Shown one piece after another: positions 56,279 through 63,800 of a DNA stretch of 64,000 nt (position 1 is the first letter of the stretch; every line of letters starts with the position of its first letter). The stretch is from positions 149,978,001 to 150,042,000 of the forward strand of contig NC_042997.1 of assembly GCF_006345805.1 (NCBI RefSeq), in the 5' to 3' direction. The stretch is from Octopus sinensis (taxonomy: Eukaryota). The position numbers and the translations under genes are program-made. The notes beneath the pieces are model-generated. The model saw only the letters and a list, made by a program, of their open reading frames with translations. It was not told the origin of the DNA and did not search any database.

Positions 56279-56679
56279 ATACATACATACATACATATAT
56301 GATATATGCGTATGTGCACGTTTGTGTATATATATATATATATATGTACATATGTAGACAAACGCACACACACATTCACATATTCATGTATGTTTGTATG
56401 TATGTCATTGTCGTTCGCCACTCAAGATAATTGACCTTTAGGAAACAGTACTTAGTTTATTTCTTGTATGACAATGACAGTGCAATTTCTGGAGACAAGA
56501 ACTTTGATGACAGGACAAGCCTTCAGAAATGATTTCACAAGTTCATACATGGGCGTAATATCTTCGCTCATCTTTTGCAAATATGTAAAATTGCCTGAAA
56601 ATTTACGGTAATATACGTCACGTTCGTAGCTGCGTGGGAAAATGGATCACTATGCACTAAATCCACTGACTCACACTCA

Positions 56680-56764
56680 TAAGCAAGCTACTTACCACAC
56701 AGCCACTCTTACGCCTATATATATATATATATATGTGTATATGTAGAGAGAGAGTGAGAGATAC

Positions 56765-56795
<31 letters not shown>

Positions 56796-56824
56796 TGTCC
56801 ATATATATATGTGTATATATGTAC

Positions 56825-56871
<47 letters not shown>

Positions 56872-56973
56872 AGATCAGCAAAAATTAGATTCAAATGAAA
56901 AACCTCTATTAATGGCTGACATTTTAAAGTTGTTGTAATACTAAAACATTTAATAAAAATGATGTAGCGTGAA
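56680..56973. repeat. Left arm of an inverted duplication (partner 63018-63465)
   Basis: Reverse complement shares unique sequence (gatcagcaaaaattagattcaaatgaaa..aacctctattaatggctga), microsatellite order and a SINE head variant. Confidence 0.92.
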
Positions 56974-57914
56974 TATATGAATTTTCGGTAGGGACACTGT
57001 ATCACGTTTAAAACTTTAAAAAACTGCAAATTTGAAATATAAGCTATGTGTTCATGGATAGTTAATGGGCTCGATGCTGTGCTGAAGGAGTACTACCTCC
57101 GTAAATATACAAAACGCCCTTACACATTTATTCTATCGCATCTTAACAGACACGGGAGACGGCAACCACCCAGAAACTCCGGTCTGTGTGTATCACATAA
57201 GGCTAGAGATGGGAGCGATGACCTCTTTCGCAATACTAATCAGTCGTAAACTGTGTCATTGGCCAGCTGGACTGTCCTAAGTACTGAACGAATCCTATAT
57301 CTCTCTTATATCTTCTCTCTTGTTAAAGAAAATATTTCTCCAGCGTTCGCTATTTTATCCTCCTTCTGGTCTAACGAACCTCCATGTTTGATTTCGTTCG
57401 GTTTCCTTTATGTTTTCACTGTCCTGTTTTTCCTCCCAACTTTGACCCTCCATAAATCCTACATTTTTGGACTTTAGGGAGCAACTGTCTTTGAAGACTC
57501 ATATAATTGTTCAATGCTCGAAATGAGGAATAGCTAGACAGCCGACAACTGATGAAGGTTCGTTTTCATGATATTTGTCCAGTTTTCCATTTGTTTCTCT
57601 CCTTTCCGTCGTATTGAATCCATTTGTTTTCGTATTTCATGTTGGTTATTTTTCGTGACGTCCTGTACCAATATATATATTATTTATATTATTATTTGAT
57701 TGAACGCCACGCATCAGTTTCTAAATAAGTATATATATATACTATATATATATATATATAATCCAGACCACATTGTTGGATTAAGTATCAATTTCATCTA
57801 TTTCATATTTTATTATTATTCTATTTTATCTTTCACTTAGGCCCACATCTTAGTTAAAGTTGCGATCGTCATTTGGTTTGTTTACATTTTCAATAACTGT
57901 TCTCGATATAATAA

Positions 57915-58942
57915 TTTTCAGATACTCTATCTTCTAATTAGCCTTAAGATTAAATTAAATACGTTTTAATATTGATACCGTCAAATTAGCCTTAGGATTA
58001 AATTAAATAACGTTTAATATTGTTTAATATTGTTAATAATATTGTTAATTAGCCTTAAGATTAAATTAAATAACGTTTAATATTGTTTTAATATTGTTAA
58101 TAATTTTTCAGATACTCTATCTTCTAATTAGCCTTAAGATTAAATAAATAACGTTTAATATTAATAACGTCTAATTAGCCTTAGGATTAAATTAAATAAC
58201 GTTTAATATTGTTAATAATTATTGTTAATTAGCCTTAGGATTAAATTAAATAACGTTTAATATTGTTTAATATTGTTAATAATTACTGTTAATTAGCCTT
58301 AAGATTAAATTAAATAACGTTTATATTGTTTAATATTGTTAATAATTATTGTTAATTAGCTTAAGATTAATTAAATAACGTTTAATATTGTTTTAATATT
58401 GTTAATAATTCTTCAGATACTCTATCTTCTAATTAGCCTAAGATTAAATTAAATAACGTTTAATATTACCCACACTCTAATATAATATTAACATTGCTAA
58501 TATATTTTCAGATACTATCTCCTGATTAGCCTTAAGATTAAATAACGTTTTTATCCACACTCTAATATAATATTATATTGCTAATATATTTTCAGATACT
58601 CTATCTTCTAATTAGCCTTAAGATTAAATTAAATAACGTTTAATATTAATAACGTCTAATTAGCCTTAAGATTAAATTAAATAACGGTTAATATTGCTTA
58701 ATATGTATATATAATTTTTCAGATACTCTGTTTTCTAAATAGCCTTAAGATTAAATTAAATAACGTTTAATATTACCCACACTCTAATATAATATTAATA
58801 TTGCTAATATATTTTCAGATACTCTATCTCCAAATTAGCCTTAAGATTAAATAACGTTTTTACCCAAATAACGTTTTTACACAAACTTTAATATTGTTAA
58901 TATTTCTTTTTCAAGTACTCTATCTTCTAATTAGCCTTAATA
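57915..58942 (+). repeat. AT-rich modular tandem array, ~15 copies of aattagccttaagattaaattaaataacgttt; probable LINE 5' UTR
   Basis: Cores near 57936, 57984, 58047, 58125, 58172, 58226, 58291, 58353, 58431, 58525, 58610, 58658, 58738, 58833 and 58929. Separated by a few recurring linkers (ttttcagatactctatcttct; aatattgtt runs; cccacactctaatataatat). Confidence 0.9.
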
Positions 58943-59001
58943 TCTTCCTGTCTTCTCTCGAACATAATTAGATAGATAAATGGATAGACGGATTATCCAG
59001 C

Positions 59002-59912
59002 ATGTCCAGAGCATGGAGACGTGACGAGCTGGATTTATTCGTACGAGCATGGGAGTGCGCCGGCGGAGATAGCCCTAGCGAGGTGATTGCGGCTGCGCTG
59101 AAGAGCAGGGGCTACAAGAGGACAGCGGCTCAGATGGAGCGAAAGAGACAGGAATTCGTGCGCTCATATGAGCTTGTACGGTCGCACATTGGCGCACTTG
59201 ATGCCATCTTTGAGAACGAGCGGGGCAAGATGGCAAGAATGGAGACGATGAAAGAAGTCACCCCCACCTGGTGGACGCCCAGGAGGAGGTTTTGAATGAG
59301 AAACCTGCCCGGGAAGTGAACCCAGGTGCAAGTTCTCCAACCGGCAGCAAGGGCCATGGAGACGGAGAACCCAGTGAAGAGGTAGAGGGAGGAAGAAGAA
59401 CTAAAAGAAGGACTGGAAGAGCTAAAGGAAAAGAAAAAGCTCAAGCAGGACCAAGAGAGAGAAACAAACAGGAGTAGAAGTGGAACCGCAAAGGATGGAA
59501 CCAAACAGCGCACAGGGTGTGTATGTTCTACCTGAGAGGTTCCTGCTGGCACGGAAAGGAAGGTGCAGGCTGCCGCTTTGCACATCGGGGACCCTGCCAC
59601 AGAGACACGAGGCAGATGGACAAACCATCAACACAAAGAAAAGGGATGGACTACGCACCACCTGCCCCAAAGCGGAGGTACGCAGATGTTGTGCGCGCCA
59701 CAAACAGCCAACATGATGTTGTCGAAAGAGCAGCTGCTGAGCAACAAACTTTTTTGTGCATGGCACAAAAGATTGTACAGCAGCTGACCTGGCTTCATCA
59801 AGCCCAAGCCCGCAGGTGGGACTACCCACTATATACCAGACCACCACAGCAAACAGACACAGGATGGACACCGCCGGCAACAACGTACACCTCACCTCGA
59901 TACTCCTACTGA
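59002..59912 (+). pseudogene. LINE ORF1: Myb/SANT-like trihelix domain + CCCH zinc finger (~300 aa, disrupted)
   Basis: AWRRDELDLFVRAW..IAAALKSRGYKRTAAQMERK..Y; one frameshift near 59260-59270; in-frame TAG 59475-77; CMFYLRGSCWHGKEGAGCRFAH (C-x7-C-x8-C-x3-H). Confidence 0.75.
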
Positions 59913-62861
59913 ACATCAGAGGACTGCAAACACTCAGTAACAGGACAAAGATCCCGTTCCTGAGAGACTTTGTTGCATGCAATCAAGCCTTATGCATAGC
60001 ACTTACAGAAACGCACCTGAAACCGGACATAGCAGATGCGGAGTTACACATACCAGTATGCTTGTACTACGGACCGACAGGAAAGAAAGGAGTCATGGAG
60101 GTGTTGCTATGTACATCCGTGAGGACCTCACACCCCAGGTCCTCTTGTCATACTCAAACTCGGTGTGTGACACACTAATTGTACATATTAGGCACTTGAT
60201 GTAGTTGTGTGTGCTACATATCGCCCTCCAGATGCCCCAAGCCATGTGGGCAAGTTTGAAGACTGCCTTATAAAAATAGAAGAAATTCTAACCACATTAG
60301 AACAACACATAGGTGTGCTTCTTATGGGAGACTTCAATCTGCCCAATGTCAGATGGCCCGAGGGCCTCTCTCTCCCAGGAATAACAAGATGTGAACGAGG
60401 ACAGGCGAGGTCCCTCCTGAACCTCATCAACACCCTGTACATGGAGCAGGTAATACTCCAACCAACCAGGGCAGGTAACACACTGGATCTCTGCTTCACA
60501 AATGACATGGATCTCATCCATAATGTGAAAGTGACACCGACACTACTCTCGGATTACAACATGATAGAGCTGACCATGTACGGGCCAAAAGAGAGCACGG
60601 ACATGCAGCCTACAAGAAACCCTCAAAATCTTTCCAGCTTGAACTACCATAAGGCAAACTGGAAACAAATTGAGAAAGAGATCCTCAAACAAAACTGGCC
60701 TAAATGTCTCTCCTCGCCAGACATCGACGTGAAACTTCAACAATTCATGTCTGTAATGCAAGCCATATGCTACAAATGTGTCCCAGAGAGAAAGGCCACT
60801 GTACACAAGAACAAAATCCGCAGAGAGAGGAAAACTTTAATGAGACGGCGTACGAAATTTTCAAATCGCCTAAACAAACAGATTGAAAGCAGTGAAAAGT
60901 CCCGCCTAAAAATAAAACTGTTGGAATCGAAAAATGTCTGCAACTCTCCCATGAAAAAGAAAGAGCAGACAAAGAAGCCTGGGCTATAGAAAACATAAAA
61001 TCTAACCCCAGAGCTTTCTACAGGTAGCCAAAGAAACAGCTACAGTGCACTGTAGAATAGGGCCACTCCTCGAAAAGGATGGCACACTTACAGGAAAACC
61101 AATGAGGGTAAGTGAAATACTGAATGAGCAATTCTAGAGTGTTTTCACTCCACCCCTTGGGCATCTCCAAATCACCAATCCAACTGACTTTTTTTACCAC
61201 TGCAGATATAAAATCAGAGGCGGCGACGATAGATTACATCGATATAAAGGAAGAGATGTAACCAAGGCTATAGATGAAATGAAAACAGACTCAGCTACTG
61301 GCCCCGATGGATTCCCGGCAATCCTCCTAAAAGCATGTAAGAGAGTCCTAGCAGCAAGACCACTGCAGTTCCTCTTTCAGAGCTTCCTTGCAGCTGGCAA
61401 ACTTCCAGGAAAACTGAAGGAAGGTAAATATGCCCCATTCATAAAGGCGGTAGCAGAGCGGAAGCCAAGAACTATAGACCTATCTCTCTGACCTCACACA
61501 TCAGCAAGGTCATGGAACGAATAGTCAGAAGGAAGCTGATCACCTTCCTTGAAGAGAATGACTTGCTGCCCGACACCCAACATGTTTCCGACCAGGGAGA
61601 AGCTGTTTAACTCAGCTCCTACAACACTATGACTGGGTGCTGAAACGGCTGCTCAACCACTCAAATGTGGAAGTGATATATCTCGACTTTGCAAAGGCCT
61701 TTGATAAAGTCGATCATGGAATGATATGTCACAAACTGCGTGATCTCAACATAGTTGGAAAACTGGGGAGAATGGCTTCATGACTTTCTGAAGGATAGAA
61801 GTCAGGTGGGTGGTAGTAGCCAATGGGGCCACCTCCATTAACACACAAATAGTGAGCGGTGTTCCGCAGGGCACTGTTCTGGGACCACTACTGTTCATAA
61901 TGGCCCTCTCAGACATGCCCTCAGCCACGCAGAGAGCCACGATCACAAGTTATGCAGATGATACAAAAGCTTCACAGGCAATACAGAACCCTGAGGACAC
62001 TAAACACCTGCAATGTGAGCTGGACGAAATATACAAGTGGGCTGAAAAGAATAGCATGCAGTTCAATGCTGGAAAGTTTCAGCTTTATACTATCAGCATG
62101 CAAAACTGAATGCAATACCCAATGAATACACTGGACCGGAGGGATTGCAATCCCAGAGGCACAATCAGTGCGTGACCTGGGGTATTCACATGAGTGATGA
62201 CGCGACCTTTCATGTACATGTTGCTAAACTGACAATGAAATGTAAACGGCTGGCTGGATGGATTCTTAGAACCTTTAGAACAAGAGAACAAGAAACCATG
62301 ATGGTCCTCTGGAAGACAATTGTCCTAAGCCACTTTGACTATTGCTCTCAGCTATGGTCACCATCCAGTGTCAAGTTGATCACAGAACTTGAGGCGATCC
62401 AACGAAGCTACACAAAGAAGATAGCCTCTATGCAGAATGTAAGCTACTGGAAGACTCAAGAGATTTAAAATTATATTCCCTGGAGCGTAGGCGGGAAGAT
62501 ATGCCATAATATACATCTGGAAGATCCTGGAGGGAAGTGTCCTGAACTTTGGCATCGAGAGTTACGCAAATGCCAGAACTGGGCGCCACTGCGTGGTGCC
62601 TAGGACTCCAAACCTGCCATCAAGATGTAGGACAAGATTCTGTGATAGCCTGGGCTTCCGAGGCCCACAGCTCTTCAATATCCTCCCGAAGAACCTGAGA
62701 GACCAGCATGGGTGGTGGATATACGATGTCTTAAAATGAAGCTGGATCTCTTCCTGTCAGGTGTCCCAGATGAACCAACTTCAAGGCAGGAGGGGCAGAT
62801 GAGGGCAGCTGCATCGAACTCTCTCATGCACCAAATAGCAGTTGCTAGAAAGCCTCCATGA
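59864..62861 (+). pseudogene. LINE ORF2: AP endonuclease + reverse transcriptase (disrupted)
   Basis: LLNIRGL, LTETHL, GGVAMY, YRPP, GDFNLP, TLDL, SDY; ATGPDG, YRPISL, YLDFAKAFDKVDH, GVPQGTVLGPLLF, YADDT. Several frameshifts and stops. Confidence 0.95.
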
Positions 62862-62940
62862 AGTGAAACCAAGTAGCAACACCAAATGGCGGTGCCCCAG
62901 CATGGCCACAGCTCATAAGCTGAAACTAGAATCAATCAAT

Positions 62941-62973
<33 letters not shown>

Positions 62974-63000: not shown

Positions 63001-63093
63001 TAATTTGGTACGATCGTTTCACGCTACATCATTTTATTAAATGTTGTTAGTATTACAACAGCTTTAAAATGTTGGGCAATCATCAGCCATTAA
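63001..63093 (-). ncRNA. Type I hammerhead ribozyme motif with ~60-nt stem II
   Basis: Minus strand: taatgg CTGATGA ttgc-ccaa-catttta-aagc-tgttgt..acaaca-tttaa-taaaatg-atgta-gcgt GAAA cgatcg TA cca-aatta; palindromic stem III acgatcgt. Confidence 0.75.
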
Positions 63094-63125
63094 TAGAGGT
63101 TTTCATTTGAATCTAATTTTTGCTG

Positions 63126-63181
<56 letters not shown>

Positions 63182-63315
63182 CACACACATGTACATATAT
63201 ACACATATATATGGACATGTGTATATGTATATATATTAATATATATATATATTATATATATTATATATATATTATATGTGTGTGTATCTCTCTCTCTCTC
63301 TCTCTACATATACAC

Positions 63316-63800
<485 letters not shown>

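Follow-up and report, generated by a model that had tools for sequence, protein, structure and literature searches.

The window examined here, a stretch of 64,000 nucleotides of Octopus sinensis DNA, holds a LINE whose first open reading frame (ORF1) appeared to join a Myb/SANT-like domain to a CCCH finger behind an array of short monomers. The locus raises the question of whether this architecture is genuine and, if so, what such a domain would do in a retrotransposon. Of the LINE proteins, ORF1p is understood least; it is viewed as a chaperone that binds RNA, and many ORF1s carry a PHD domain. It was found that the Myb/SANT plus CCCH ORF1 is a real, unusual architecture, present across several octopus LINE families. 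The main reading of its role, to which a probability of about 0.45 is assigned, is that the Myb-like domain likely took the place of a PHD-type finger and would tether the RNA–protein particle to DNA or chromatin, probably favoring AT-rich or (TA)n sites.

Layout of the Window Copy and of Family A

The element lies on the forward strand at 57758–62944 and is a 5′-truncated copy of a LINE family termed A, bounded by (TA)n tracts on both sides; approximately 300 nt of the 5′ end are missing relative to full-length copies. It begins with the array-proximal remnant of a unique 5′UTR leader (57758–57935), which matches the sequence preceding the array in other copies. This is followed by an AT-rich (80%) 5′UTR array (57936–58945) of 14–15 units with a core of ~32–38 nt and alternating spacers. 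ORF1 (59002–59912) starts at the ATG at 59002, encodes 303 amino acids in open copies and is broken here near 59227, 59455 and 59515. Residues 1–72 (59002–59217) form the Myb/SANT-like three-helix domain, assigned through a PF13837 match, AlphaFold2 helices and fold matches. A single CCCH-type finger of the form C-x7-C-x8-C-x3-H (59520–59585) was located by weak Pfam matches and alignment, and sequence comparison revealed a conserved, likely helical C-terminal “SFL” segment (59748–59801). ORF2 (59864–62861, ATG at 59864) encodes an APE endonuclease (PF14529/PF03372) and a reverse transcriptase (RT; PF00078) and is interrupted by many frame breaks caused by indels. The element closes with a short 3′UTR and an (AATC)n tail (62862–62944), in which 62881–62911 resembles the 3′ end of a neighboring SINE-like repeat.

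The N-terminal motif named in the original prediction is present from the ATG (W5-x3-E9, W17, I29-A30, L33, RGYKRT at 36–41, Q44, K48 and Y56), as is the expected finger. The proposed overlap between ORF1 and an APE-RT ORF2 was confirmed and amounts to 49 nt. That ORF1 forms one reading frame holds for sister copies, with 13 of the 30 best family A copies carrying the open 303-aa frame, but not for the window copy, in which the Myb part (a 97-aa ORF) is not in frame with the finger. In the open copies, the order is Myb/SANT-like domain, linker, one CCCH finger and C-terminal helix. The window copy differs from locus L047 by 26 substitutions and ~25 short indels. An unplaced contig (G000:C9773, with L002 and L032) duplicates the window locus and its flanks at ~100% identity and is probably a haplotig of it. 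L002, the version of the window locus on this second contig, shows no substitutions and four single-base indels, and lacks two of the ORF1 frame breaks of the window copy. As the break at 59227 is absent from L002, it and some of the other frame breaks may be assembly errors.

A genome search for family A gave 1367 first-look candidates, and the 40 that were scored matched at 97–100%; the copies are ~98% identical to each other. Monomers stand upstream of ORF1 in all of the best 30 copies, in an identical layout, and all ten loci selected by their array on contig C1 carry family A (four of these are also among the 30 selected by ORF1). The expectation that array, ORF1 and ORF2 travel together is borne out in these copies. 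A local chimera is ruled out by the layout shared among the 30 copies, and the O. vulgaris proteins P0001–P0005 belong to a second family, B. As in APE-type LINEs, an APE endonuclease precedes the RT in ORF2, and the copies are dispersed, with 7 of 21 truncated at the 5′ end and 21 of 21 ending in (AATC)n. A Pfam scan of ORF2 gave no match to RNase H. Family A is a young, abundant APE-RT LINE family; the label CR1 for these LINEs is our assumption from RT motifs, rather than from a tree on named references. Four sets of putative-RNA contigs cover ORF1 with a strong 3′ bias, in data of a kind from which neither strand nor full-length transcripts can be resolved.

Related Families in the Octopus Genome

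The Myb/SANT-like ORF1 occurs in five octopus LINE families, A to E. The named homologs of the family A ORF1 are Octopus vulgaris proteins, and a word-seeded protein search (8000 candidates) returned four homologs, all from that species. Family B, located with P0001, has the domain closest to that of A (49% identity). A genome search with PF13837 gave 150 matches, mostly in repeated groups, and the 20 loci fetched represent families C, D and E. These share the domain at the start of ORF1, CCCH-type fingers, the SFL segment and an ORF2 of the APE-RT kind. In the RT, families A/B and C/D/E are only ~45% identical.

Copies of the different families are found close to each other. At L043, L048 and L125, respectively, an A copy lies beside an antisense D ORF1, an A copy stands behind the 3′ end of another LINE, and a B copy adjoins an antisense A-like piece. 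Such nesting and adjacency offers an opportunity for module exchange.

Identity and Conservation of the ORF1 Domains

The original prediction placed the N-terminus in the trihelix-type PF13837 family and suggested a profile check and a structure prediction. The assignment was borne out, with a match below the cut-off for family A itself. Residues 3–62 of A match PF13837 at 21.3 bits (E 3.6e-4), under the Pfam gathering score of 27 bits, and the family B domain scores 15.2 bits. The isolated domains of C, D and E pass the cut-off at 34.2, 29.7 and 27.7 bits; as whole ORF1s, C passes at 28.8, with D and E falling short at 25.7 and 23.9. A profile match to a host PF13837 domain reached a probability of 91% (E 9.8e-7). 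Since the isolated domains of the relatives exceed the cut-off, the Myb/SANT-like assignment is regarded as firm at the level of sequence comparison.

AlphaFold2 predicts helices at residues 7–19, 26–35 and 42–75 with a pLDDT of 85, alike from the single sequence and from a six-sequence alignment, so that the three-helix Myb-like fold is seen in a predicted model. Foldseek returned no match at E < 0.001 for this model, and its top rows are Myb domains. VIA-align ranked the GARP-Myb domains of ARR1, LUX and PHR2 best (Z 8.2, 7.5 and 7.4; rmsd 1.7 over 57 residues for the first), with GT-1 at Z 6.6, homeodomains interleaved among the ranks, and SANT and chromatin-complex chains also present; a Z of 8 for a small helical model is about the level reached by common arrangements, and homeodomains score alike. 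A search of the domain profile against PDB sequences gave GT-1 as its best match (E 0.26) and very weak matches to R2 Myb regions (E 1.6 and 2.1). Atlas matches for the family A domain are Myb families at 0.85 or less and serve as a lead only.

Eight residues are invariant in the six aligned domain sequences (W5, E9, W17, I29, R40, Q44, H62 and L66), of which H62 and L66 sit on the long third helix (residues 42–75) outside the Myb core. The helix-3 tryptophan of GT-1 aligns to R, K, T, I or L and is therefore replaced in all five families, and the conserved set of core aromatics is incomplete. The net charge of the domain is positive throughout, at +1 to +4. Codon comparisons indicate purifying selection on the domain. 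Between A and B, dN is 0.44 with saturated dS in the Myb part, and 0.92 with a dS of 1.17 in the linker (one pair); between D and E, the Myb part has a dN of 0.35 with saturated dS (again one pair).

Family A has a single CCCH finger, with weak, below-cut-off matches to PF00642 and PF16131, and its relatives have a tandem array of CCCH-type fingers. The SFL segment is common to all octopus families examined and to most of the CCCH-type relatives from metagenomes. No Pfam match was obtained for the domains of ORF1 types I–IV (RRM plus CCHC, L1-type, PHD and esterase), at E up to 10 for A and up to 1 for C, D and E. A homolog search with the CCCH region of family C gave no match, and an Atlas search with its ORF1 gave no usable match.

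Comparison with Known Systems

The nearest known kind is the CR1/L2 lineage of LINEs with a PHD-containing or unclassified ORF1 (types III and V of Khazina and Weichenrieder, PMC4120745). Both have two overlapping ORFs, an APE-RT ORF2, 5′ truncation and a short tandem 3′ tail, together with a modular ORF1 in which N-terminal domains are exchangeable; the closest relatives found here have an N-terminal PHD. The octopus ORF1s differ in bearing a Myb/SANT-like domain and CCCH fingers instead of an RRM, CCHC knuckle, PHD, esterase or L1-type domain. These latter types have been catalogued and exchange of modules between them documented (PMC4120745). The words “Myb”, “SANT”, “CCCH” and “trihelix” do not occur in the main text of that paper, and the claim that this ORF1 type falls outside the usual CR1/L2-group repertoire agrees with its absence from the Jockey-superfamily catalogue given there.

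A Myb-type domain in a non-LTR retrotransposon protein is also found in R2, alongside an N-terminal zinc finger, and recognizes the target DNA (PMC11204384). R2 is a single-ORF element with a restriction-like endonuclease and is targeted strictly to 28S rDNA, whereas the octopus domain is of the PF13837 type and resides on the separate ORF1p of an APE element with dispersed insertions. In domain family and predicted fold, it resembles the Myb-like proteins of PIF/Harbinger transposons (treated in PMC9392472), MSANTD proteins and the plant trihelix factor GT-1. It departs from these in the partner, an APE-RT rather than a DDE transposase, in the loss of the third tryptophan and in the fusion to CCCH. 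None of the 11 genomic matches to PF13359 lies at the window locus, and a DDE transposase partner was not found there.

Octopus RTE and Dong elements have been described in PMC9115989, in the available text of which “Myb” and “CR1” occur zero times. Further context for mollusc LINEs is given in PMC10294476, PMC9068888 and PMC11481361. In the open-access literature, neither titles nor abstracts describing a Myb/SANT ORF1 were found, and the architecture may provisionally be considered uncatalogued.

Relatives from Metagenomes and Origin of the Domain

An ORF2 alignment was used to scan metagenome contigs (29 of 64 parts), yielding 80 loci; upstream ORFs were screened in the 45 with the most upstream DNA. 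A CCCH array is present in six (L163, L169, L174, L175, L177 and L178), five of which have the SFL segment. L163 carries two Pfam PHD fingers (E 8.9e-7), and L174 and L178 show PHD-like Cys/His spacing by eye, with no Pfam match. The ORF1 of L175 starts within half a PHD, and L169 and L177 break off before reaching this part. A complete or near-complete ORF1 N-terminus is available in only three relatives. Among the 45 screened loci, no upstream ORF exceeded 3.6 bits on the Myb profile. In L163, L174 and L178, PHD or PHD-like fingers, tandem CCCH and SFL are combined with a helical segment ahead of each PHD; this scaffold is itself missing from Table 1 of PMC4120745.

The RT tree comprised 34 rows, 5 from octopus and 29 from metagenomes (one of the 30 chosen loci was dropped for a frame error). 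Families A and B group with L169, L175 and L177 at 100% support; L163, L174 and L178 fall outside, and C/D/E further out, being basal in the midpoint-rooted tree. A single clade of all Myb-bearing LINEs is rejected at a cost of 78.6 log units (AU p 1.8e-11, on a quick tree and with the group fixed beforehand by ORF1 content). This rejection points to a module swap. The Myb-like domain probably took over from a PHD-type finger at the N-terminus of ORF1, and the simplest reading of the sequences is a PHD-to-Myb swap, after which a C-like element passed the N-terminal module on to the ancestor of A and B. The suggestion that the domain was captured is consistent with a Myb domain where relatives have a PHD-type finger but needs refining, as two non-sister RT lineages bear it.

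Alternatively, there may have been two captures from host genes of the MSANTD/Harbinger type, or an ancestral Myb domain later replaced by PHD elsewhere; this is a possible if somewhat doubtful history. It would suit the basal branching of C/D/E in the midpoint-rooted tree and the thin sampling of relatives. With a profile of the C/D/E domains, A and B (25.8 and 27.7 bits) do not stand apart from two host PF13837 domains (24.1 and 25.5), which also favors it. Conversely, a profile of A and B prefers family C (41 bits; D/E 14) to five host PF13837 domains (at most 11), and H62 and L66 occur in all five families and are missing from the aligned host domains. Of the host domains, those most similar to the LINE domain belong to two PF13837 genes of the W-x3-E-x2-L-I-x2-W type (L085 and L086, on contig G000:C11304). 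No match to a Harbinger transposase was found on that contig.

Insertion Sites

In APE LINEs, the endonuclease is generally held responsible for target choice. In the family A copies inspected for target-site duplications, most junctions fall within (TA)n. Behind the tail, 16 of 21 A copies and 13 of 17 C/D/E copies, or 29 of 38 pooled, have a run of (TA)4 or longer (3 of the 20 C/D/E loci were dropped, with no 3′ end located). In a control family that we take to be RTE-like, from its C-terminal motifs alone, such a run follows 12 of 30 3′ ends (40%), and it occurs in 266 of 5700 background windows (4.7%). The pooled Myb-bearing LINEs differ from the control at a Fisher p of 0.003, in a comparison where the control copies are more diverged (92–94% vs ~98% identity), tails differ and flank windows are not identical. 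In this genome a (TA)n preference is widespread, and it is more marked in the Myb families. The excess need not stem from ORF1p and may reflect age, tail microhomology or endonuclease preference. Guided integration into AT-rich DNA, as originally proposed, is weakly backed by the frequency of (TA)n after Myb-LINE ends but tempered by the enrichment in the control, and the evidence for domain-guided targeting to (TA)n is suggestive only.

The 5′UTR and Its Monomer Array

The predicted array of some 15 copies of a ~32-bp core upstream of ORF1 is confirmed, with 14 units counted with a strict seed and 15 with a loose one, at an irregular spacing of 47–128 nt. An exact 38-mer of the monomer was counted 602 times genome-wide and its reversed control not once. 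The first 100 matches listed group into 24 clusters, which suggests a rough total of ~150 arrays. An origin of the array as part of a flanking element or as free satellite is ruled out for the ten array-selected loci on C1.

Fourteen of 21 family A copies are 5′-complete, extending ~300 nt further 5′ than the window copy, with UTRs of 1.6–2.1 kb and 14–22 units. In all 14, the first monomer begins 447–485 nt from the element start, about 477 nt inside the 5′UTR. The monomers hence lie on the 5′ side of the element, as had been proposed, but do not form its terminus. In mouse L1, GC-rich monomers of ~200 bp make up the 5′ terminus and serve as promoter. The octopus arrays resemble them in being tandem 5′UTR units that vary in number and are replaced between subfamilies, and differ in their short units (32–42 bp), high AT content (~80% in family A) and internal start.

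Families A and B resemble each other over their first ~150 nt (72%, E 6.5e-15), a conserved stretch that includes the word AAGACGTG, which we take to be downstream-promoter-element-like. On account of this conservation and this word, an internal promoter likely lies in the 5′-terminal region, upstream of the array. Among ten copies of family B, four have 6–22 units of a different, 42-bp monomer and six have none. No long array was found in 20 C, D and E loci, where the most is a two-copy 45-bp repeat in two C copies. The units of A and B1 share a TTAGCCT core in opposite orientation. A common binding motif in the two monomers was rejected, as 41 of 500 shuffles reach the alignment score and 142 of 500 the longest shared word. 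The 42-bp monomer holds TGTTTGTTTA and CAGTTA, putative Forkhead- and Myb-site-like words. A ~500-nt pyrimidine-rich tract precedes ORF1 in the family B 5′UTRs (L123–L132). Judging from this distribution, the Myb-like domain is older than the arrays and independent of them, and the array is best explained as a recent family-specific amplification inside the 5′UTR.

Proposed Function and Its Rivals

If the domain acts as a tether, the CCCH finger would bind the element’s own RNA, the C-terminal helix would oligomerize ORF1p, and the basic third helix would touch DNA with loose specificity. The Myb-like domain, in the slot held by PHD in the relatives, would keep the particle on genomic DNA or chromatin. 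ORF2p could then nick and prime at TA repeats by way of the AT-containing tail, and the array may tune expression through host factors. A PHD-to-Myb swap on one CCCH scaffold suggests that the N-terminal slot engages DNA or chromatin.

The domain could instead be a protein- or RNA-interaction module that binds ORF2p, further ORF1p molecules or a chromatin factor of the host, or that acts as a non-specific nucleic-acid chaperone, with no role at a DNA site. The lost third tryptophan, the low net charge and the long third helix with its invariant H62 and L66 past the Myb core would fit such a module, as would the SANT and chromatin-complex chains among the fold matches; Harbinger Myb-like proteins bind both transposon DNA and transposase (PMC9392472). 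It is nonetheless rather unlikely, given that the invariant R40 and Q44 and the basic start of helix 3 resemble DNA-binding trihelix domains and that the top fold matches are DNA-bound Myb/GARP domains. A bolder version of the tethering reading, in which an uncatalogued ORF1 class arose when a Harbinger/MSANTD-type domain replaced PHD and jumped between two LINE lineages by recombination, with sequence-specific binding that steers (TA)n insertion or reads the 5′UTR, is decidedly improbable as a whole.

The least probable of these explanations is autoregulation, in which ORF1p would bind its own 5′UTR DNA, at the monomers or the 5′-terminal region, and feed back on transcription. Its appeal lies in the constant linkage of array and ORF1 (30/30 ORF1-selected copies and 10/10 array-selected loci on C1, four shared) and in the fact that the most similar Myb domains, those of A and B1, belong to the two families with long arrays and a shared TTAGCCT core. 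The common first ~150 nt of A and B and the binding of Harbinger Myb-like proteins to their own transposon DNA (PMC9392472) add to it. Yet B2 has the same domain but lacks the 42-bp array, long arrays are missing from C, D and E, the array stands away from the 5′ end, and the likeness of the A and B1 monomers is matched by shuffles. Between A and B the arrays were replaced but helix 3 was conserved, leaving a near-identical recognition helix in sister families with different arrays or none. The greater age of the domain likewise counts against autoregulation through the monomers, which retains a low probability in A and B1. Binding to the monomers, which the original prediction had put forward, is thus not supported as the reason for the domain, which selection retains in array-less families. 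The tethering reading is therefore preferred. Should (TA)n targeting be true, it would be a case of an APE-type element directed through ORF1p, and a small foldable domain in five diverged versions offers a handle for direct test.

Neighboring Repeats

A SINE-like repeat, which we take to be similar to described octopus tRNA-SINEs, lies at 63430–63800. Its 3′ end (63748–63778) is 87% identical over 31 nt to the LINE 3′UTR at 62881–62911, and this shared end suggests that families A and B mobilize the SINE. The LINE is flanked by inverted similar stretches (77–86%) at 56677–56975 and 63018–63468, composed of a SINE fragment, (TA)n and an AT-rich repeat of ~130 nt. Either an ancient inverted duplication or the presence of a composite repeat in two copies would account for them. 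Just upstream, 57270–57760 is a separate, older dispersed repeat with 6882 first-look candidates, the best copies of which are 79–85% identical.
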